Source: Candidatus Omnitrophica bacterium UBA6253 (GTDB lineage Bacteria; Omnitrophota; Gorgyraeia; Gygaellales; Profunditerraquicolaceae). From it: a stretch of 64,000 nt of DNA. The stretch spans positions 260,255-324,254 of the forward strand of contig DJVP01000012.1 of assembly GCA_002441245.1 (NCBI GenBank), given 5' to 3'. Under the pieces are notes generated by a model. It ran no database searches, had not been told where the DNA came from, and worked only from the letters and a program-made list of their open reading frames with translations. Each line of letters opens with the position of its first letter. Within the stretch, counting starts at the first letter, position 1. A program made the translations under genes and the position numbers. Below, one piece after another: positions 23,045 through 49,216 of the stretch.

Positions 23045-23310
23045 TGCTTATTCACCCTGGCAATAGCTTTTAAAACCTTAACTATCTCAATAATTGCTGT
23101 CAAAAAACCAAAAACAATACCAATCGATACCACTAAAAAAGGCAAATTAAACTTTTTCTGTAAATAAATACCTGCAAGGTAACCTGAAAGCGGGCCGGCA
23201 GCTAAGATAAAGGGAATAAAAGAAACAAAACCTACGGTTTTTATCCCTTTATAGAAATCTTCTTTCTGCATAAAGTGCTTATAAAAAAATCGACGTCTTA
23301 TATCCACCAC
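23041..23310 (-). CDS. atpI: AtpI/AtpZ-like small membrane protein at the head of the atp operon
   Basis: 89 aa with two hydrophobic helices. GTG start. It overlaps the atpB start. Confidence 0.5.
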   Translation of the reverse strand: MVDIRRRFFYKHFMQKEDFYKGIKTVGFVSFIPFILAAGPLSGYLAGIYLQKKFNLPFLVVSIGIVFGFLTAIIEIVKVLKAIARVNKQ

Positions 23311-23367
23311 TGGATTTAAGACGTCTGTTATCTTAATAACTGCTTTACCCTTTTGTAAGCAAGTGTT

Positions 23368-23395
23368 ATTTTACCATAATTTACAAGCTTGTCAA
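23368..23395 (-). promoter_or_regulatory. Sigma70-type promoter of the atp operon
   Basis: Minus strand: TTGACA (plus 23390-23395), a 16-nt spacer, TAAAAT (plus 23368-23373). Confidence 0.4.
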
Positions 23396-23406
23396 TTATT
23401 CTTTGC

Positions 23407-30873: not shown

Positions 30874-31073
30874 CTTCTGCTTAAACTTTATGCATCGTTA
30901 TTGAAAAAAAGACGCTCACTTTGGCAAAAAGAATTTAAGCCATCATGAACGTCTATGTTCTATGTGTTATATGTTATACTTGAAGCACTACGCCGTGCTT
31001 ACATTTTAAACTCTAATACCTGATCCCATTAGTGTCCAATCCAGTATTTCGCTGGATCAAGATTTTAAGTTGC

Positions 31074-33753: not shown

Positions 33754-33849
33754 ATAATCCTCCTTGTAGCATTCAGCGAATAATACTTAACGTTAATAAG
33801 ATTCTTATTCATCCTATAAGTAAGCTCCTATGCTTTATGCTAATCATAA

Positions 33850-35079
33850 TTATTCTAACACTGTATATGCCCGCTCACGATGCTGTGTAAGATCTAAACC
33901 AATAGCTTCCGATTTATCATCTACCCTGACCCCGATAAAGATATCCACTAATTTGTAGATAATAAAAGTAACCGCGCCAGTATAAGCAATAGTTACCCCC
34001 ACGGCTAAAAGCTGTATCAGGAACTGCTTGGGATTACCAAAAAATACCCCGTTTGCTCCCGCAGAATTAACCAACTTTGAAGCAAATAGCCCTGTAGCCA
34101 AAGCGCCCCAGATACCGCCAACACAATGAACGCCAAAAGCATCCAAAGAATCATCATAGCCGAATAATGGCTTAATCACAGCCACGGCAATAAAACAAAT
34201 AACACTAACCAACAAACCGATGATAATCGCAGAAATCACGCCTACAAATCCAGCTGCAGGAGTAATGGCGACTAAACCTGCAACTGCACCGGAACAAACG
34301 CCTAGAATGGTCGGTTTACCATTACGTATCCATTCTATCAATGCCCAACTTAAACCAGCGGCTGCAGCAGCGGTATTGGTAACTACAAAAGCATTTACTG
34401 CTAAACCATTTGCTGCAAGCGCACTTCCGGCATTAAAGCCAAACCAGCCAAACCATAAAAGCCCGGTCCCCAAGACCACAAAAGGCATATTATGCGGAGC
34501 AGGAACATTCTTTTCTAAATTAGTGCGTTTTCCTAAAATTATAGCCGTAATTAACGCAGCAATACCGGCATTGATATGTACAACTGTGCCTCCGGCAAAA
34601 TCTAATGCCCCTACATTTCTCAGCCAGCCACCCATGCCCCATATCCAGTGGCACAGCGGATCATAAACAAAGGTTGTCCAAAGAAGAGTAAAAATCAAAA
34701 ACGCAGAGAACTTCATCCTCTCGGCAAATGCACCAATAATTAAAGCGGGAGTAATAATGGCAAACATGGCTTGAAAGATCATAAACGCCTGATGTGGGAC
34801 TGTACCGGCATAATCAGTGTATGGCTCTAAACCTACCCCATTTAAACCAAACCAGCCAAACCCTCCCCAAAAACCCTCCCCCGGGTGAAAAGATAAACTA
34901 TAGCCAATCAAAACCCACTGGATACTTAAAACGCACATAATAATAAAACATTGCATCAAAACGCTTAATACGTTTTTACGCCTGACCATGCCTCCATAAA
35001 AGAATGCCAGACCCGGGGTCATCAATAACACCAACGCTGACGAGATTAGCACCCATGCTGTATCTCCTGCATTAATCAT
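33850..35079 (-). CDS. amt: Ammonium transporter (Amt family)
   Basis: 409 aa, 11-12 transmembrane segments, Amt signature regions (DFAGGTVVHINAG). Confidence 0.9.
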   Translation of the reverse strand: MINAGDTAWVLISSALVLLMTPGLAFFYGGMVRRKNVLSVLMQCFIIMCVLSIQWVLIGYSLSFHPGEGFWGGFGWFGLNGVGLEPYTDYAGTVPHQAFMIFQAMFAIITPALIIGAFAERMKFSAFLIFTLLWTTFVYDPLCHWIWGMGGWLRNVGALDFAGGTVVHINAGIAALITAIILGKRTNLEKNVPAPHNMPFVVLGTGLLWFGWFGFNAGSALAANGLAVNAFVVTNTAAAAAGLSWALIEWIRNGKPTILGVCSGAVAGLVAITPAAGFVGVISAIIIGLLVSVICFIAVAVIKPLFGYDDSLDAFGVHCVGGIWGALATGLFASKLVNSAGANGVFFGNPKQFLIQLLAVGVTIAYTGAVTFIIYKLVDIFIGVRVDDKSEAIGLDLTQHRERAYTVLE

Positions 35080-35169: not shown

Positions 35170-35349
35170 TTAATCTAAACCCAGCTTTTCTTTAACCAGC
35201 TTTGCATAAACCTTATTTATATGCCTGGTCTGCAGCCATCTCTCTATGGTAGTAACTTGAATATCCAGCTTCTTAGATAAATCATACAGGGTATAACCAT
35301 TTTCTTCTTTCACCCGCAATATTTTCCTGATTAATTCATTATCTACCAT
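35170..35349 (-). CDS. Small HTH DNA-binding protein (59 aa) between glnK and amt. It is not in the ORF track because it is under 60 aa.
   Basis: Manual translation gives MVDNELIRKILRVKEENGYTLYDLSKKLDIQVTTIERWLQTRHINKVYAKLVKEKLGLD. It has an excisionase/MerR-type HTH (LSKKLDIQVTTIERW). The ATG lies 5 nt after the glnK stop, and the frame is open across the whole amt-glnK gap. Confidence 0.4.
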   Translation of the reverse strand: MVDNELIRKILRVKEENGYTLYDLSKKLDIQVTTIERWLQTRHINKVYAKLVKEKLGLD

Positions 35350-37124: not shown

Positions 37125-37943
37125 TTAAAATACATAGCTTAGATAAACACCGCCGTATAATCTATTCTTTTGATTACCATTATCCTTATCGCTGATATTG
37201 CCCCAGGGAATAGAATAATTAATATTTGGCTTACAGGTTAAGTTCTTTAATAAAGGCACGGTAACCCCTACCCCTAAACCCGCGTCGCCACCCTTACCGC
37301 GATAATACTGTTTATTGTTATAACCTAGGTGTCCTGAAAAATCCAAGCTCATATTATACTTGCTTATAACAAATGGGATGCTGTGGGATAAATTAAGCAC
37401 CGTGTAACTACCCTCACCTCCGCCATCATCTTTCTTGCCAAAATCATAATAATAATAAATAGCCGGAGAAAGCAGCAATTTAGTAAAAGTTATCCCCCCA
37501 TATACTTCCCGGCTGAATCCTCTCGGAGCGCCATCCGCAGGCGCAGCATCAGGAAAATCATAATAAGTAAACCCGGTAGAAAGATCTATGCTGGGAAAAC
37601 TATAGGTATAGTCAAACAGATAATCTGTTTCACTGGATTTTAAATTATCCTTGTTTTCTAGATCATGATTAAGCCATATACCTACTTTTATCCTGCCAAA
37701 CTTTGATTCCGGGCTGCGTACATAAAAACCCGGCTGTACTACGGCATCTCCGTCAAGCATTATGCCTCTCCACATATATATGGAATTAAAAGCTAAATCT
37801 CCGGAAACTTCGATCCCCGAAGTTGATAAAATACCATCCAGCAACCCGCCTTCGGCTGCCTGCGCTGATCCGAATGTTAACACACTTAAGAATACACTTA
37901 AGAATACACTTAAGAATAATCCTGGTTTAAACCTTTTCATCAT
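37125..37943 (-). CDS. Outer-membrane beta-barrel protein (porin-like) ending in a C-terminal Phe
   Basis: Start at ATGATG after AAGGAGG (MMKRFKPGLFLSVFLSVFLSVLTFGSAQA, a signal peptide). Alternating amphipathic beta-strands. Terminal ...YLSYVF. It is the first gene of the amt-glnK cluster. Confidence 0.6.
   Translation of the reverse strand: MMKRFKPGLFLSVFLSVFLSVLTFGSAQAAEGGLLDGILSTSGIEVSGDLAFNSIYMWRGIMLDGDAVVQPGFYVRSPESKFGRIKVGIWLNHDLENKDNLKSSETDYLFDYTYSFPSIDLSTGFTYYDFPDAAPADGAPRGFSREVYGGITFTKLLLSPAIYYYYDFGKKDDGGGEGSYTVLNLSHSIPFVISKYNMSLDFSGHLGYNNKQYYRGKGGDAGLGVGVTVPLLKNLTCKPNINYSIPWGNISDKDNGNQKNRLYGGVYLSYVF
37882..37917. repeat. Perfect 3x tandem 12-nt repeat (acacttaagaat) inside the OMP signal-peptide coding region
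   Basis: Direct reading. It encodes the (SVFL)3 stretch of the signal peptide. Confidence 0.8.
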
Positions 37944-38012
37944 TACCTCCTTAAAAAGCGAAGGCGCCTGGCCCGCTCTTTTAAAATACGGTTTAGACGC
38001 CCATGTCTTTTG

Positions 38013-38046
38013 AAAACAAAAAAAGCGTACTATTTTCATAGAACGC
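38013..38046 (-). terminator. Rho-independent terminator after the sigma-factor gene
   Basis: Minus strand: GCGUUCUAU-GAAA-AUAGUACGC (one U-U mismatch) followed by UUUUUUUGUUUU. Confidence 0.5.
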
Positions 38047-38113
38047 CCGTGTCAAATTTTACACTTCAATGTGTCTTACATTACTACAAGTATAAAAAAC
38101 ATAAAAATGGTAA

Positions 38114-38638
38114 CTAAATTTTATCCAAATGCCTCTGGGATTTAACCCTGATTTTCTGCGTCATCTTTACTATAGTAACATGCGATACGCCCATACGCTT
38201 ACCTATATCCCTGGTAGTCAACCCCTGACTAAAATAATCAAGCAGCCTTTTCTCCACTGGATTAAAACCATTATTCCTGATACTTTGGGCCAAAAACTTA
38301 TTGTGCAGCTCCTGACGGCAATCATCGCAAGCCCAATATTCGCCAAGTATATCCTCCACGGTCGCCTCATTATTACTATTCAAGGCCGCATCGATACTCA
38401 CAATATTTGAACGTTCATTAATCTTGCGGATATAGTTCCTCAGATGAAAATAACACCCTTGTAAAATATAACTATCTGTTTTATCTCCTAGTTCTCCCTT
38501 GAGAAAACTGCCCCAAAGATGAATAGTTGCTTCCTGATAAAGATCATCATGATTAAATGAACGGTAATGCCCATTTAACCGGTAGGCAATCCTTTTTATG
38601 GTTGGCGATAACTTCTTATGCAACTCTTCAAAACTCAT
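38114..38638 (-). CDS. ECF-type sigma-70 family RNA polymerase sigma factor
   Basis: 174 aa. Region 2 (DDLYQEATIHLW) and region 4 HTH (LTTRDIGKRMGVSHVTIVKMTQKIRVK). Confidence 0.7.
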   Translation of the reverse strand: MSFEELHKKLSPTIKRIAYRLNGHYRSFNHDDLYQEATIHLWGSFLKGELGDKTDSYILQGCYFHLRNYIRKINERSNIVSIDAALNSNNEATVEDILGEYWACDDCRQELHNKFLAQSIRNNGFNPVEKRLLDYFSQGLTTRDIGKRMGVSHVTIVKMTQKIRVKSQRHLDKI

Positions 38639-38650
38639 ATTGCCCCCATG

Positions 38651-38698
38651 GATAAAATAAAAAACGTCCCTACCTTATTTTTCAGGTAAAGGACGTCT
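38651..38698 (-). terminator. Rho-independent terminator T1, immediately 5' of the sigma-factor RBS
   Basis: Minus strand: GACGUCCUUUACC-UGAAAAAUAA-GGUAGGGACGU followed by UUUUUUAUUUUAU. The sigma gene's GGGGG RBS and ATG follow within about 15 nt. Confidence 0.6.
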
Positions 38699-38704
38699 TG
38701 GTCC

Positions 38705-38743
38705 AAAAAAAAGCCTTCTGGCATACCAAATTCACCAGAAGAC
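38705..38743 (-). terminator. Rho-independent terminator T2
   Basis: Minus strand: GUCUUCUGG-UGAAUUUGGUAUG-CCAGAAGGC followed by U8. Confidence 0.6.
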
Positions 38744-38771
38744 TTCCGTGTCTCTTGCTACAACGCTGTAA
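38740..38771 (-). promoter_or_regulatory. Candidate ANTAR-type dual-hexaloop RNA antiterminator element
   Basis: Minus-strand RNA: P1 UUAC[AGCGUU]GUAG (plus 38758-38771), a 3-nt linker, P2 (G)AGAC[ACGGAA]GUCU(U) (plus 38740-38753). Both hexaloops have A at position 1 and G at position 4. The 3' arm of P2 (GUCUUC) is the start of the 5' arm of terminator T2. Confidence 0.4.
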
Positions 38772-38780
38772 TCTATTTAA

Positions 38781-38808
38781 AGTATATCATATCCTTTATT
38801 GATGTCAA
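38781..38808 (-). promoter_or_regulatory. Sigma70-type promoter between the nadE stop and the terminators
   Basis: Minus strand: TTGACA (plus 38803-38808), a 16-nt spacer, TATACT (plus 38781-38786). The predicted transcription start is about 5 nt before hairpin P1. Confidence 0.45.
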
Positions 38809-38884
38809 GCAAAAATTGAATACTTTATAGCTTTGATCTCCGCAGCCCTTTATCAAACACCAGCAAGATCAATGACAATAATTT

Positions 38885-40573
38885 TTAACCACAATACTTA
38901 TTGGTGATCGGCATACGCCTATCCCGGCCAAAGGCTTTAGGCGTGATCTTTATTCCCGGAGGAGACTGTCTGCGCTTATACTCATTCTTATCTACCATAC
39001 CTATAGTCTTATTAACTATTTCTTTATCAAAACCTAAAGAAATAATCTTCGCTAAAGATTTATCTTCTTCAACATAAGCCTTTAGGATCGCATCCAGTAT
39101 TTCATAAGGAGGTAATGTATCCTGATCCAACTGATTCGGCTTAAGTTCGGCAGTAGGCGCTTTTGTAAATACGCGCTCAGGAATAACCTGGTGCAGAGAA
39201 TTCCTGTATACGGCTAATTTATAAACTAATGTCTTGGGCACATCTTTTATTACGGCAAGGCCACCGGCCATGTCGCCGTAAAGAGTAGCATAACCAGTGC
39301 TCATCTCTGATTTATTCCCGGTAGCCAAAACCAACCAACCGAATTTATTGGAAAAGGCCATCATAATATTGCCTCTTATGCGTGCCTGCAGGTTCTCTTC
39401 TGCCGTATCCCTTCCTAAGCCTGCAAAATGCGGTTCAAGCACCAATAGATAAAATCTGAATATTGGTTCAATAGAGATAGTAACGAATTTAATCCCTAAA
39501 TTTTTAGCAAGCGCCGTAGCGTCTTCCTGCGACTGGCTGCAAGTATAACGTGAGGGCATAAATACACCGGTAACATTTTCATTACCCAGGGCATCAACCG
39601 CCAAAGCCCCAACAAGAGAAGAATCAATCCCCCCGCTCAAACCGATTACAGCTTTTTGGAAACCGTTTTTAACTACGTAATCCTTTACCCCCAGAACCAA
39701 TGCCTGATAAACCTCTGCTACAGGTTCTAAAACCTTGGGCTTCTGCGGAATAACTAAACCTGTCTTTGGCGTTGAGAGCAGATTAGCAATTTTAATTACT
39801 TTCTTAGGATGCTTGAGCCTACTTACAGGAATACCTAAATCACGAATTAATAAATCTTCGGCAAAAGCCTTAGCCCTGGCTAGTATCCTGCCTTTGTTAT
39901 CAACTATCATGCTCTGGCCGTCAAATATCAGCTCATCCTGGCCACCAACGAGGTTAGCGTAAACAACGAATACGTCGTTAGTTTTAGCCTGCTTAGCGAT
40001 AACCGCCTGCCTTTCTTTAAATTTAGTCGCGTAATAAGGAGAGGCATTGATATTAAGGATTAATTTTGAACCCGCAGCCGCTTGCGACTTTGTCGGCCCC
40101 TCAGGATGCCAGATATCCTCACAGATATTTACTCCGAAGATAAAATCGCTAAGACCAAAAACCAGCGATTTATCCCCGGAGGAAAAATAACGCTGCTCAT
40201 CAAAGACTCCGTAATTAGGTAAGAAATTCTTACGGTACACCCCTTTGATTTGCCCATTATGGATTATTGCCGCGGCATTGTATGCTTTTTTGAATTCGCC
40301 ATCAGCAAAGCCCACAACCGCAACGATATCGCCATTAATAGTTTTTGTTAAATTCTTCAGGATATTGACATTATCGCTGATAAATTTCGGCTTTAACAAG
40401 AGGTCTTCGGGAGGATATCCGCAAAGCGCCAATTCAGGAAAACAGATTATATCTGTGCCGTAATTTTTTGCTTCTTCAATATACCGGCTGATTTTAACGG
40501 CATTTCCATGCAGGTCGCCAACAGTAGAATTTACCTGCGCAATTGCTACGCGCAACGAATTTTTATCTTTCAT
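38885..40573 (-). CDS. nadE: Glutamine-dependent NAD+ synthetase (N-terminal nitrilase domain plus C-terminal NAD synthetase domain)
   Basis: 562 aa. CN-hydrolase domain (CFPELALCGYPPEDL, NICEDIWHPE) and PP-loop GLSGGIDSS. Confidence 0.9.
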   Translation of the reverse strand: MKDKNSLRVAIAQVNSTVGDLHGNAVKISRYIEEAKNYGTDIICFPELALCGYPPEDLLLKPKFISDNVNILKNLTKTINGDIVAVVGFADGEFKKAYNAAAIIHNGQIKGVYRKNFLPNYGVFDEQRYFSSGDKSLVFGLSDFIFGVNICEDIWHPEGPTKSQAAAGSKLILNINASPYYATKFKERQAVIAKQAKTNDVFVVYANLVGGQDELIFDGQSMIVDNKGRILARAKAFAEDLLIRDLGIPVSRLKHPKKVIKIANLLSTPKTGLVIPQKPKVLEPVAEVYQALVLGVKDYVVKNGFQKAVIGLSGGIDSSLVGALAVDALGNENVTGVFMPSRYTCSQSQEDATALAKNLGIKFVTISIEPIFRFYLLVLEPHFAGLGRDTAEENLQARIRGNIMMAFSNKFGWLVLATGNKSEMSTGYATLYGDMAGGLAVIKDVPKTLVYKLAVYRNSLHQVIPERVFTKAPTAELKPNQLDQDTLPPYEILDAILKAYVEEDKSLAKIISLGFDKEIVNKTIGMVDKNEYKRRQSPPGIKITPKAFGRDRRMPITNKYCG

Positions 40574-41295
40574 TTCTTCTTGGCTCTTATATCTTTAGCC
40601 AAAATAATTGCTTCGGCTACTTCACGCATGGATTTACGCATATCCATGCTTTGTTTTTGAATTAAACGGTAGGCCTCGGAAGACGGGATATTCGCATCTT
40701 GTGAAAGTATATCCTTTGCCCTCTCAACCAGCTTACGCGTAGTTAATGCCTCCTCGGCAGAACGAACGCGCAAGTCTAACTCCGCATTCTCAATAGCAAT
40801 GGCTGCCTGGTTGGCTAAAGCAGTCAAAAGGTCCAATTCATGTTTAGAGAATTTGTGTTTTTTAGAAGTATAACAATTTAATACTCCGATAACCCTGCCC
40901 CTTACCGCCAGGGGCACACAAGCCAAAGAACACAGTTTTTCTTTATTGGCGACGTCCTGGTTTAAATAGCGATGGTCAGTCTTTACATCTAGGACACAGA
41001 TCGCCTTGTTATCTTGGGCCGCTACACCGGCAATACCCTCTCCTAAAACAATATTCGCTTTTTTATTGTATGCCTCGGATATCGACTGAGTAGCCTTAAC
41101 TACTAACTCTTTTTTATCTGGGTCTAACAGCATTAAAGAAGAAATCTTGGAATTCATAATCTCGGCGGTGACCTGAACCACCAAACGCAATAATTCTTCA
41201 AGATACATCCCGGAGGTAATTAAATTAGCAACCTTGGAAATTGCCTCAATCTGCTTTACATAAACCTGGAAACTATCTTTTTTCTTAACCGTCAT
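40570..41295 (-). CDS. GAF-ANTAR RNA-binding antiterminator-type regulator (NasT/AmiR-like output domain)
   Basis: 241 aa. N-terminal GAF domain (about residues 20-170). The C-terminal ANTAR domain (TTRKLVERAKDILSQDANIPSSEAYRLIQKQSMDMRKSMREVAEAIILA) has the conserved KxxL...EAY pattern. Its stop overlaps the nadE start by 4 nt. Confidence 0.75.
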   Translation of the reverse strand: MTVKKKDSFQVYVKQIEAISKVANLITSGMYLEELLRLVVQVTAEIMNSKISSLMLLDPDKKELVVKATQSISEAYNKKANIVLGEGIAGVAAQDNKAICVLDVKTDHRYLNQDVANKEKLCSLACVPLAVRGRVIGVLNCYTSKKHKFSKHELDLLTALANQAAIAIENAELDLRVRSAEEALTTRKLVERAKDILSQDANIPSSEAYRLIQKQSMDMRKSMREVAEAIILAKDIRAKKK

Positions 41296-42446
41296 TATTT
41301 CCTCTTTTCTAGAAACCTTTTTAACCTGACCAAGGCTTCTTTTAAACTATCAAAACTAGAAGCATAAGAAATCCTGATATAACCTTCACCACAAGAACCA
41401 AAAGCTGTCCCTGGGACAACTGCAACTTTCTCCTCTTCCAATAATTTACGCGAGAAATCCATAGAAGACAAACCTGTGCATTTTATCGAAGGAAAAATAT
41501 AAAAAGCCCCCTGGGGACGCGAACATTTTAACCCAAGAGCATTTAACTCTGCCACCATAAAAAGACGTCTGCGGTTGTATTCACGCTTCATCTGTTCTAC
41601 TGATCTTTTGCTATTGACCAATGCCTCCGCAGCCGCCATTTGGCTGGTAATGGGCACACACATAATCGTATATTGATGGATTTTAGTCATTGCGGCAATA
41701 ATCTCTTTCGGCCCGCAGGCAAAACCTACACGCCAGCCGGTCATCGCGTGAGACTTGGAGAACCCGTTAAAATAAACTGTATTTTTCTTTGCGCCCGTTA
41801 ATGTTGGAAAGGCAGTATGCATAAAATCATAAGTCAAGTCTCCGTAAACTTCATCACTAATACAAAGTATTTTATGCTTTAATAAATATTTGTTTATATC
41901 CACTAACTCCTTGCAACGATATGAAACACCAGTAGGGTTAATAGGGTAATTTAAAACAATACCTTTGGTTTTTTTATCAATATATTTTTCCAAAAGTTTG
42001 GGTGTTATTTTAAATCCGTCTTTTGAAGTATCGATATAAACCGGCACCCCTCTTGCAAGTTCCGTAACCGGACCGTATGAAACATAACTGGGCTGAGGGA
42101 TCAATATCTTATCGCCCGGGTTAATTATTGCCCGCAGGAGAAGATCCAGGCCTTCGCTTACTCCTACAGTAATTAATATTTCTTCATCCGGGCAATAATC
42201 AAGAGCATATTTATTCTTTAAATAACGGTGTATGCCCAAACGTAGTTTATAGAGACCTTTGTTTGAGGTATAGCTGGTAAACCCCTGCTCAAGAGAATAT
42301 ATACCTGCTTCGCGAATCTGCCACGGAGTGACAAAATCCGGCTCACCTACGCCTAACGATATGACTTCCTTCATTCCCAGCACCAAGTCAAAGAATGCAC
42401 GGATTCCGGATGGCTGCATTTTCTCTACAATTCTCGATATTTGCAT
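41295..42446 (-). CDS. Pyridoxal-phosphate-dependent class I/II aminotransferase, aspartate-aminotransferase-like
   Basis: 383 aa. The PLP-lysine region SFSKSHAMTGWRVG is typical of AspC-family enzymes. Confidence 0.8.
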   Translation of the reverse strand: MQISRIVEKMQPSGIRAFFDLVLGMKEVISLGVGEPDFVTPWQIREAGIYSLEQGFTSYTSNKGLYKLRLGIHRYLKNKYALDYCPDEEILITVGVSEGLDLLLRAIINPGDKILIPQPSYVSYGPVTELARGVPVYIDTSKDGFKITPKLLEKYIDKKTKGIVLNYPINPTGVSYRCKELVDINKYLLKHKILCISDEVYGDLTYDFMHTAFPTLTGAKKNTVYFNGFSKSHAMTGWRVGFACGPKEIIAAMTKIHQYTIMCVPITSQMAAAEALVNSKRSVEQMKREYNRRRLFMVAELNALGLKCSRPQGAFYIFPSIKCTGLSSMDFSRKLLEEEKVAVVPGTAFGSCGEGYIRISYASSFDSLKEALVRLKRFLEKRK

Positions 42447-48811: not shown

Positions 48812-49216
48812 CTAGCCATTTTCTACCACATACTCTTTATCCAAAGATGCGCAAATTTCTTTTACCGCGCTCAATAGGTTTGCCAGGTTAAAAGGCTTAG
48901 TTAAATAACAATCCGCTCCAAGTAAATGGGCATATAGTTTATCCTGCTCACGGCATTTAGCACTGATTACCACAATAAACGATCTATAATATCTGGGGTC
49001 ATCTTTTATCTGCCGGCAAATATCAAAACCATTTATACCGGGAAGCATAATATCCAAAATAATAAGGTTAAAAACATCCTCTTTAATCCTTTGTATGGCA
49101 CTTACGCCATCAAAGACTTGCTCGACCGTAAAACCTTCTTTACCTAAATTATAGGCTAGAAGGTTATTTATATCCTCGTCATCTTCTACAATAATAATTT
49201 TCTTATCATTAGTCAT
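48812..49216 (-). CDS. Stand-alone response-regulator receiver domain (CheY-like)
   Basis: 134 aa with IIIVEDDEDIN, LIILDIMLPGINGF and SAKCREQD. No output domain. Confidence 0.8.
   Translation of the reverse strand: MTNDKKIIIVEDDEDINNLLAYNLGKEGFTVEQVFDGVSAIQRIKEDVFNLIILDIMLPGINGFDICRQIKDDPRYYRSFIVVISAKCREQDKLYAHLLGADCYLTKPFNLANLLSAVKEICASLDKEYVVENG

Follow-up and report, generated by a model that had tools for sequence, protein, structure and literature searches.

Downstream of nadE in the genome of Candidatus Omnitrophica bacterium UBA6253, a short intergenic region separates an operon for an aminotransferase, a GAF-ANTAR regulator and NadE from the gene for a sigma-like protein. Does this region act as a transcription attenuator that an RNA-binding protein can override, and if so, which protein reads it and which genes stand behind it? 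We analysed the 64,000 nucleotides (nt) of contig DJVP01000012.1 from position 260,255 to position 324,254 (hereafter the window), and all coordinates below are positions in the window. The region, which we call leader 1, is read on the minus strand. An earlier note on this DNA had proposed an ANTAR-type dual-hexaloop antitermination element here. We examined the anatomy of leader 1, its pattern of conservation, the covariation of its terminators, its energetics, its synteny and its strand specificity, and we consider it likely that leader 1 is an ANTAR-type, protein-dependent transcription-attenuation (antitermination) leader, with the adjacent GAF-ANTAR protein as its likely effector.

Anatomy of leader 1

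Leader 1 comprises the following elements, listed in the direction of transcription:

38781..38808, minus strand: promoter, with the -35 box TTGACA at 38808-38803, a 16-nt spacer, TG at 38789-38788 and the -10 box TATACT at 38786-38781
38758..38771, minus strand: hairpin P1, UUAC[AGCGUU]GUAG, 4 base pairs (bp) and a hexaloop, at the 5' end of the transcript and overlapping no terminator
38739..38754, minus strand: hairpin P2, GAGAC[ACGGAA]GUCUU, 5 bp and a hexaloop, candidate antiterminator of T2
38705..38745, minus strand: intrinsic terminator T2, stem from 38743 (or 38745) to 38713, loop of 11-13 nt, U8 at 38712-38705
38691..38704, minus strand: hairpin P3, GGAC[CAAGAC]GUCC, candidate antiterminator of T1
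38659..38696, minus strand: intrinsic terminator T1, 11-bp stem with one bulge at 38696-38664, U-run (U6) to 38659

The promoter is of the sigma-70 type with an extended -10 element (TGaTATACT). It matches at 11/12 positions and is the only such minus-strand site in 37500-40000; from its position, transcription is predicted to start at about 38774. P1 and P2 are separated by a linker of 3 nt, CAA, and both of their loops carry A at position 1 and G at position 4 (A1 and G4). The sequence GUCUU is common to the 3' arm of P2 and the base of the 5' arm of T2, making the two structures mutually exclusive, and GUCC is likewise common to the 3' arm of P3 and the base of the 5' arm of T1. Both terminators have the form expected of intrinsic terminators, a stable G+C-containing hairpin followed directly by a U-run (U8 in T2, U6 in T1). 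Our simple terminator scan reported T1 only, the loop of T2 (11-13 nt) being above the 8-nt limit of the scan. Beyond T1 come a G-rich ribosome-binding site and the ATG of the sigma-like gene at 38638. Much of this had been described in the earlier note, and we recovered it: the TTGACA-16-TATACT promoter 3' of the nadE operon, the dual hexaloop with its 3-nt separation and its A1 and G4, the use of the P2 3' arm as the first part of the T2 stem (the fold confirms T2), the two consecutive terminators before the sigma-like gene, which dominate the minus-strand fold, and the overlap of the third hairpin, P3, with T1.

To gauge how often such an arrangement arises by chance, we counted pairs of A..G.. 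hexaloop hairpins with a linker of up to 25 nt, the second hairpin overlapping a terminator of at least 7 bp, in dinucleotide shuffles of the window. The expected number per 64-kb strand was 0.04 for stems of at least 4 bp and 0.2 for stems of at least 3 bp; one was observed. The window sequence alone is thus suggestive, not decisive, and comparative data carry the case.

Conservation across Omnitrophota

Scanning one genome per species, we identified 151 loci with relatives of the sigma-like gene, 80 of which were retrieved (43-86% protein identity, nearly all from metagenome-assembled genomes of Omnitrophota) with flanks of up to 6 kb per locus. The promoter was compared in 48 leaders, and alignments were built from 35 leaders for P1-P2-T2 and 46 sequences for P3-T1. 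The promoter was kept in 47 of the 48 leaders, with TTGACA essentially invariant, a spacing of 16-17 nt and TG in 44/47; the -10 box varied among leaders yet was recognisable as TAnnnT.

The hairpins showed a distinctive mixture of fixed and free positions. The UAC/GUA core of P1 was invariant in 34-35 of 35 orthologues, and its loop, present in 15 distinct versions, had A1 in 32/35 and G4 in 35/35, with positions 2, 3 and 5 variable (entropy 1.2-1.6 bits). The AGAC/GUCU core of P2 was invariant, and its 20 distinct loops had A1 in 27/35 and G4 in 31/35; a small clade carried P2 loops without G4 (AAUUGA, GAAUGA, AAUUAA). Loop positions 2 and 3 were free in both hairpins. The P1 structure could form in 88.6% of alignment cells and that of P2 in 96.6%, and the linker between them measured about 1-5 nt. 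P3, which had earlier been described as weaker, proved to be the most conserved element of all (GAC/GUC in 46/46, G4 in 45/46, consensus loop UAAGGC). P1 and the first hairpin of a second leader in the window (leader 2, below) overlap no terminator, and for this reason they are the cleanest carriers of the signature of A or another purine (R) at position 1 and G4. These sequence comparisons support the view that the hexaloops of P1 and P2 are conserved in the manner expected of an RNA read by a protein, with stems, A1 and G4 fixed and the other loop positions free. The earlier note had named beforehand the conservation of the two hexaloops in orthologous loci as a test of its proposal, and with both hexaloops conserved across the 35 leaders the reading survives.

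The terminators were supported by covariation. The distal half of T2 had 27 cells changed on both sides, compared with 14.5 in shuffles (a value reached by 1/500 of them), and 91.6-92.7% of T2 cells were paired, compared with 37-55% when the partners were slid. In T1, 7/11 pairs had changes on both sides, and the observed score was reached by 0/500 shuffles. In two loci (L018 and L039), the outer pair of P3 had changed from G-C to A-U and the matching base of the T1 3' arm had changed as well, the behaviour expected of a nucleotide common to two mutually exclusive helices.

These results bear on whether T2 and T1 are simply the plain terminators of the aminotransferase/GAF-ANTAR/nadE operon, with the promoter match and the small hairpins incidental. 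From the nadE stop codon (38885) to the promoter there is no terminator, and transcripts from upstream therefore enter T2 and T1; A..G.. hairpin pairs do arise by chance at 0.04-0.2 per strand. However, 47/48 leaders keep the promoter hexamers and the TG with a spacer that varies, the 5' arms of P1, P2 and P3 play no terminator role yet are invariant across 35-46 species, and the triple-hairpin design recurs elsewhere. We regard plain terminators as the least probable of the explanations considered here.

We also compared the two DNA strands. Across 753 kb of loci, we counted 202 copies of the motif GAC-N3-G-N2-GUC on the gene strand against 22 on the opposite strand, and 68 against 1 when A1 was also required. 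Since the stems are palindromic, this asymmetry indicates that the constraint acts on one strand, i.e., on RNA. It also speaks to the proposal that the TAC-N6-GTA and GAC-N6-GTC repeats are DNA operators for a dimeric factor (AsnC, Fis-type or sigma-like). Such operators would fit stems that are perfect DNA palindromes without covariation, placed just 3' of a promoter, where repressors often bind. They fit poorly with a motif found on one strand (202 versus 22), with an asymmetric conservation in which G4 is invariant but the position symmetrical to it, loop position 3, varies most, with 3' arms that each coincide exactly with the base of a covarying terminator, and with units that recur inside the operon, far from promoters. 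A role as DNA operators is therefore highly improbable.

Separately, related Omnitrophota loci contain a palindromic repeat of about 30 nt, CACCCGCGCAAT(A/T)CC...(A/T)AAGCGCGGGGTG, on both strands; the window has no copy. Copies lie at L005:5959, L018:5865, L027:5880 and 5959, and L012:3876, in L030 and L047, and in others, and some copies are inserted within leaders, either 3' of T1 or in the stretch from T2 to P3. The repeat resembles a repetitive extragenic palindromic (REP)-type element.

Folding and energetics

The minimum-free-energy fold of the leader was dominated by T2 and T1 (-41.2 kcal/mol, z = -3.3). The T2 form had a free energy of -19.8 kcal/mol, compared with -10.8 kcal/mol when P1 and P2 were enforced, and the T1 form had -19.2 kcal/mol, compared with -11.3 kcal/mol when P3 was enforced. 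Because the terminator forms are more stable than the forms with enforced antiterminators, the folding models predict termination as the default outcome. P2 and P3 are nonetheless the minimum-free-energy structures of the nascent RNA until the 3' arms of the terminators are made. RNAalifold predicted P1 and T2 and nothing further.

Termination by default would yield a short RNA with a free P1 hexaloop. Conceivably, then, the promoter, P1 and T2 mainly make a small RNA, about 70 nt long, which could serve as a decoy and titrate the ANTAR protein in the manner of EutX/Rli55 of Enterococcus/Listeria, and sequestration of ANTAR proteins by single hexaloops has been raised in the literature (PMC8934654). 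The element is, however, always directly upstream of, and co-oriented with, a sigma-like or nadE gene; a second attenuator, P3 with T1, precedes the gene; and the same design occurs in leader 2, within the operon and without a promoter. We judge a mainly decoy function to be very unlikely, and a decoy role would in any case add to attenuation in cis, not replace it.

The GAF-ANTAR regulator and its neighbours

The genes that flank leader 1, called from Pfam and NCBIfam profile searches, are as follows:

41295-42446, minus strand: aminotransferase
40570..41295, minus strand: GAF-ANTAR one-component regulator, the presumed effector (GAF_2 83.7 bits; ANTAR 61.5 bits, cut-off 27.3)
38885-40573, minus strand: glutamine-dependent NadE
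38114..38638, minus strand: sigma-like protein of 174 amino acids (aa), divergent sigma-70/ECF-like (ECF, extracytoplasmic function), the first gene behind leader 1

The stop and start codons of the aminotransferase, GAF-ANTAR and NadE genes overlap or abut, and the gene coordinates and domain scores agree with the operon first proposed for them. The ANTAR domain (PF03861) spans residues 180-231 and matches Rv1626 (1s8n), EutV (6wsh/6ww6) and NasR (4akk); the gene product is a genuine ANTAR-domain protein. The best family matches of its GAF domain are the GAF domains of PtsP and NifA, which respond to nitrogen and carbon status and sense 2-oxoglutarate or glutamine, and by this analogy we reasonably infer a nitrogen-status ligand. 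Pfam and NCBIfam annotation of the cluster gave no other RNA-binding regulator.

On the minus strand of the window, the genes run in the order PhoU, AsnC-type regulator, aminotransferase, GAF-ANTAR, NadE, leader 1 and sigma-like; then leader 2, porin-like, Amt, P-II, a small open reading frame (ORF) with a helix-turn-helix (HTH), Amt, P-II and glutamine synthetase (GS) type III; then leader 3, Fis-type HTH, GltB and GltD-like. Throughout the loci, we found the recurrent order asnC, aminotransferase, GAF-ANTAR, (nadE), leader, sigma-like, (porin), amt, P-II. Synteny of the GAF-ANTAR gene with the leader holds in most of them, and in about 25 the stop codon of this gene lies directly before the promoter and leader. 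Where nadE abuts the sigma-like gene, as in the distant genomes L042, L052, L059, L063 and L064, the P1-P2-T2-P3-T1 leader is found upstream of nadE.

The sigma-like protein is 75-90% identical across more than 100 Omnitrophota protein clusters. It matched TIGR02937 over its full length with 39.9 bits (cut-off 42.9), Sigma70_r2 with 22.8 (24) and GerE with 21.9 (23.5), and had weak PDB profile matches to FliA and SigH (E 2e-4 to 2e-3). The label of ECF sigma factor given to it earlier thus holds in part: the protein is divergent sigma-70/ECF-like, but its scores fall just under the curated cut-offs (39.9 versus 42.9 bits), and on its sequence the most fitting name is divergent ECF-like sigma.

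A second GAF-ANTAR paralogue, with 53-58% identity, is present in some genomes (L038:3292-3972, L041:1791-2468, L047:3363-4046, and in L067 and L076). This paralogue is preceded by hexaloop and terminator units of its own, e.g., GGAC[AAAGGC]GUU... and AAC[AAUGGC]GUU..., which suggests auto-regulation or cross-regulation. In L038, L041, L047 and L067, the sigma-like gene is preceded by a P3-type unit only.

Contrary evidence and searches with family models

Several observations weigh against ANTAR-dependent antitermination at leader 1. In about eight loci with the leader, e.g., L002, L005, L007, L008, L013, L017 and L032, the 6 kb upstream contain no GAF-ANTAR gene, and more distant leaders are without P1. 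Position 1 of the P3 loop is U or C, not A, in 40/46 sequences. The core stem pairs of P1, P2 and P3 never vary, and for that reason the antiterminator stems have no covariation support beyond the two sequences with a changed outer P3 pair. Positions 1 and 6 of the P1 loop (38762-38767) can pair in 31/35 orthologues (A-U in 28, G-U in 2, G-C in 1), and P1 might form a stem of 4-5 bp with a tetraloop instead of a hexaloop; pairing of positions 1 and 6 was not seen in P2 or P3. Positions 5 and 6 of the P2 loop can pair with the U-tract of T2, and the AAGG of the P3 loop with that of T1, so the conservation of these loops is partly terminator-derived, not purely a protein signal. Finally, the linker of leader 1 has the length, 3 nt, to which the eutP linker was cut when EutV-dependent induction was impaired (PMC3369931), and this length is inside the curated range of 2-25 nt (PMC8164766).

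Searches with family models count on the same side. Nowhere in the window did an Rfam family reach its gathering threshold, and around leader 1 only the PyrR binding site and atoC RNA reached E<=10. We also used a covariance model made from 30 Firmicute and Proteobacterial ANTAR sites (Ramesh Fig. S2). This published-site model gave 38771-38740 (minus strand) only 3.9 bits, not significant in a window-wide search, and ranked the reverse complement of P1 above leader 1; its best matches in the window had E>=2, a chance level. The low score is explained by the short linker and by a P2 stem of GAC/GUC rather than AGC/GCU. The earlier note had counted a miss by Rfam or a covariance search as grounds for rejection. 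We do not take the miss as refuting, because ANTAR models with a narrow focus reportedly fail when carried over from one phylum to another (PMC8164766), and the published model is too sequence-specific and Firmicute-centred. The dual-hairpin antitermination architecture is supported by conservation, terminator covariation, synteny and strand bias, although neither Rfam nor the published model detects it.

Three other assignments were considered and rejected. The PyrR binding site (RF00515) has a similar layout, in which a hairpin that binds the protein precedes the antiterminator and terminator hairpins, and aligned weakly over its full length with 30.6 bits (E 0.043), against a gathering threshold of 54. 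This score came from the two terminator hairpins; the first helix was mostly non-canonical, the binding loop ARUCCAGAGAGGYU was absent, and there was no pyr gene context. The atoC RNA match (16.3 bits) covered the promoter and P1 and was at chance level. As for a riboswitch, the approximately 60 nt before T2 hold two hairpins of 3-5 bp only, for which RNAalifold gave nothing beyond P1 and T2 and Rfam no match.

The loci with a leader but no nearby GAF-ANTAR gene also raise the question of whether the same clamping mechanism is operated by another binder, either an ANTAR protein encoded elsewhere or an unrelated RNA-binding protein. The second paralogue (53-58% identity) in some genomes would be one such protein, and a P3 loop that starts with U or C, not A, could mean a different reader. 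Three points argue for the neighbouring protein: about 25 loci have the GAF-ANTAR gene immediately ahead of the leader, the hairpins have the stem-closing pairs, loop length and G4 of validated ANTAR sites, and the cluster encodes no other RNA-binding regulator. We think a different binder unlikely and retain the adjacent GAF-ANTAR protein as the favoured effector.

Further candidate leaders in the window

At least two further candidate leaders were found in the nitrogen genes behind leader 1:

37953..38074, minus strand: leader 2, between the sigma-like and porin-like genes, with three hairpins and two terminators as in leader 1
38074-38061, minus strand: leader 2 hairpin 1, ACAC[AUUGAA]GUGU
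38053-38042, minus strand: leader 2 hairpin 2, GAC[ACGGGC]GUU, overlapping a terminator at 38046-38018
38008-37995, minus strand: leader 2 hairpin 3, AGAC[AUGGGC]GUCU, overlapping a terminator-like hairpin at 38002-37953
30904..31000, minus strand: leader 3, with the GS type III gene on one side and the genes for a Fis-type HTH protein (127 aa) and GltB on the other, a candidate from a single sequence
31000-30983, minus strand: leader 3 hairpin AAGCAC[GGCGUA]GUGCUU, followed by 22 nt before the second hairpin
30960-30947, minus strand: leader 3 hairpin GAAC[AUAGAC]GUUC, overlapping a strong terminator at 30953-30904 with U7

Leader 2 has no obvious promoter of its own. A three-hairpin, two-terminator unit lies 3' of the sigma-like gene in most of 78 loci, and the hairpins of these units, whose loop sequence was not filtered, have G4 in 163/178 and a purine at position 1 in 164/178. 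A covariance model of P3 and T1 gave 59.5 bits to its own unit, by construction, and 7.2-7.4 bits to the leader-2 units; these low scores indicate that the units are alike in architecture, not in sequence. The sequence data support leader 1 as the entry point of a serially attenuated nitrogen cluster, with the sigma-like, porin-like, Amt and P-II genes gated behind it. The original suggestion that the leader gates a sigma-factor gene was right in that the sigma-like gene comes first, but it was too narrow, since the rest of the nitrogen cluster (porin-like, Amt and P-II) appears to be gated too.

Two observations concern the genes of this cluster. The porin-like protein is of the TorF/Gcw_chp type, and the start of its mechanically called ORF (37125-38039, minus strand) overlies leader 2. 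Its homologues align from about residue 20-30 and its signal peptide begins MMKRFKPG, so the true start is probably 37943. Between the first P-II gene and the second Amt gene, an ORF of about 59 aa (approximately 35170-35349, minus strand) encodes the helix-turn-helix-looking sequence MVDNELIRKILRVKEENGYTLYDLSKKLDIQVTTIERWLQTRHINKVYAKLVKEKLGLD.

Three other sites in the window resemble parts of the leaders. At 23290-23400 (minus strand), TTGACA-17-TAAAAT and a strong hairpin, GACGUCUUAAAUCCA...GGAUAUAAGACGUC, with U7 lie upstream of ATP synthase genes (an AtpI-like small ORF, atpB, atpE and atpF). The hairpin resembles T1 (13.7 bits with the P3 and T1 model, E 0.11) and no hexaloop hairpin comes before it; the site may represent an attenuator of another kind. 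At 33823-33853 (minus strand), upstream of the gene for the second P-II protein, lies a single hairpin AGC[AUAGGA]GCU with A1 and G4 (8.6 bits with the published-site model, E 3.3), which is probably due to chance because no terminator follows it. Two overlapping dual-hexaloop matches at 49076-49132 (minus strand), with stems of 3-4 bp and a downstream U-run, in or beside an ORF at 48812-49216, appear to be chance matches as well.

Proposed mechanism

Combining these observations, we infer the identity of the binding protein, its ligand and the direction of regulation as follows. A transcript would start from the sigma-70 promoter at about 38774 and would by default fold into T2, giving a product of about 70 nt, with any read-through stopped at T1 at about 115 nt. 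P2 and P3 would each take up the first 4-5 bases of the 5' arm of the terminator that follows. If P2 or P3 were held closed, the base of the terminator next to the U-tract could not form and RNA polymerase would read on. A factor clamping P2 and P3 would remove the 4-5 bp next to each U-tract, and the leftover upper stems would be separated from the U-runs. Because the hairpins fall short of the terminators in stability by about 8-9 kcal/mol, a protein clamp would be needed, for which the product of the GAF-ANTAR gene just upstream is the best candidate. An ANTAR dimer would bind the hexaloops, with a flipped-out G4 as the key contact as in EutV, and would engage P1 first, then P2 and later P3, while the GAF domain presumably ties RNA binding to a nitrogen-status signal. 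Read-through would turn on the sigma-like protein and, past leader 2, also the porin-like protein, the two ammonium transporters and the P-II proteins; the third such candidate leader precedes gltB.

A broader reading joins several of these elements into one system: a pairing of GAF-ANTAR with its RNA targets, a nitrogen regulon that extends across the phylum Omnitrophota, override of a terminator by a single hexaloop, a relaxed loop rule and a sigma-like gene as the first to be gated. We hold this combination only tentatively. Within it, the leaders may provide the first case in which a one-component GAF-ANTAR protein is paired with its RNA targets at the level of sequence; our literature search found no report tying ANTAR to Omnitrophota or characterising a GAF-ANTAR protein. 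A single hexaloop hairpin may suffice at the second terminator and, in distant species without P1, at both. The A1/G4 loop rule may be relaxed to a purine at position 1 with G4, and in P3 to a pyrimidine with G4. The switch at the RNA level may also be the entry to a cascade of transcription initiation via a divergent ECF-like sigma.

Implications

ANTAR antitermination of nitrogen genes is already established, and the principle is not new. What distinguishes the leader 1 family is its variant features, namely very short linkers, single-hexaloop units and a relaxed loop position 1. With at least eight candidate hairpins in the window, dozens of natural variants and one protein, the rules of recognition become testable. 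In particular, the conserved units with a single hexaloop, namely P3 with T1 and, in distant species, P2 alone, speak to whether one hexaloop can drive antitermination. The leaders also give a rare and well-supported regulatory prediction for Omnitrophota, a phylum that, to our knowledge, has no member in culture. In these bacteria, the uptake and assimilation of nitrogen (Amt, P-II, GS III, glutamate synthase (GOGAT) and NadE) appear to be controlled after initiation, downstream of constitutive-looking sigma-70 promoters.

Comparison with known systems

An ANTAR target is described as a pair of hairpins, each with 3 bp or more and a hexaloop that carries A1 and G4, joined by a linker that varies and accompanied by a terminator that overlaps P2, with the consensus SYAC-AAHGRH-GUDB for P1 and RRGY-AAHGDV-GCYY for P2 (Ramesh et al. 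2012, PMC3369931). P1 of leader 1 (UAC-ANNGNN-GUA) fits the published P1 consensus. In eutP, the sequence-sensitive closing pairs of P1 are A-U and C-G (PMC3369931), and the same closing pairs are found in P1, P2 and P3 of leader 1. An EutV dimer engages hexaloops one by one, its sole base-specific contact is with G4, and a single hexaloop is the least that an ANTAR protein requires for binding (Walshe et al. 2022, PMC8934654), making a single-hairpin unit of P3 and T1 plausible.

The closest characterised parallel in layout is eut/EutV of Enterococcus faecalis. The two systems share two short hairpins with A1/G4 hexaloops, YAC...GUR closing pairs in P1, a second hairpin whose 3' arm is the 5' base of an intrinsic terminator, serial attenuators in one gene cluster and a regulator encoded in that cluster. 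They differ in that the regulator here is a one-component GAF-ANTAR protein, whereas that of eut is a phosphorylated REC-ANTAR protein, and in that the linker is 1-5 nt here and 5-12 nt in eut. The stems of P2 and P3 are GAC/GUC instead of AGC/GCU, loop position 1 is relaxed to a purine (a pyrimidine in P3), and the second terminator of each leader has a single hexaloop hairpin only.

The nasF/NasR system of Klebsiella oxytoca resembles the present one in the use of a one-component sensor-ANTAR regulator for nitrogen-assimilation genes, and its P2, GGAU[AAAGGC]GUCC, is nearly identical to the consensus of P3, GGAC[UAAGGC]GUCC. The sensor here is a GAF domain, whereas NasR has a NIT domain; the promoter is of the sigma-70 type, whereas that of nasF is sigma-54; and there are two terminators per leader, with genes for ammonium uptake, GS and GOGAT, not nitrate assimilation.

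Ramesh et al. 2012 (PMC3369931) had also predicted ANTAR targets upstream of genes for P-II, Amt and glutamate synthase, and in the light of these predictions the biology proposed for leader 1 is expected. The predicted regulons of Desulfotomaculum and Pelobacter likewise place many attenuators over nitrogen units that include P-II, ammonium transporter and glutamate synthase genes. In contrast to these, the leaders described here belong to a different phylum, Omnitrophota, and to a regulator of different architecture, and they combine a sigma-like regulator as the first gated gene with a fixed unit of three hairpins and two terminators.

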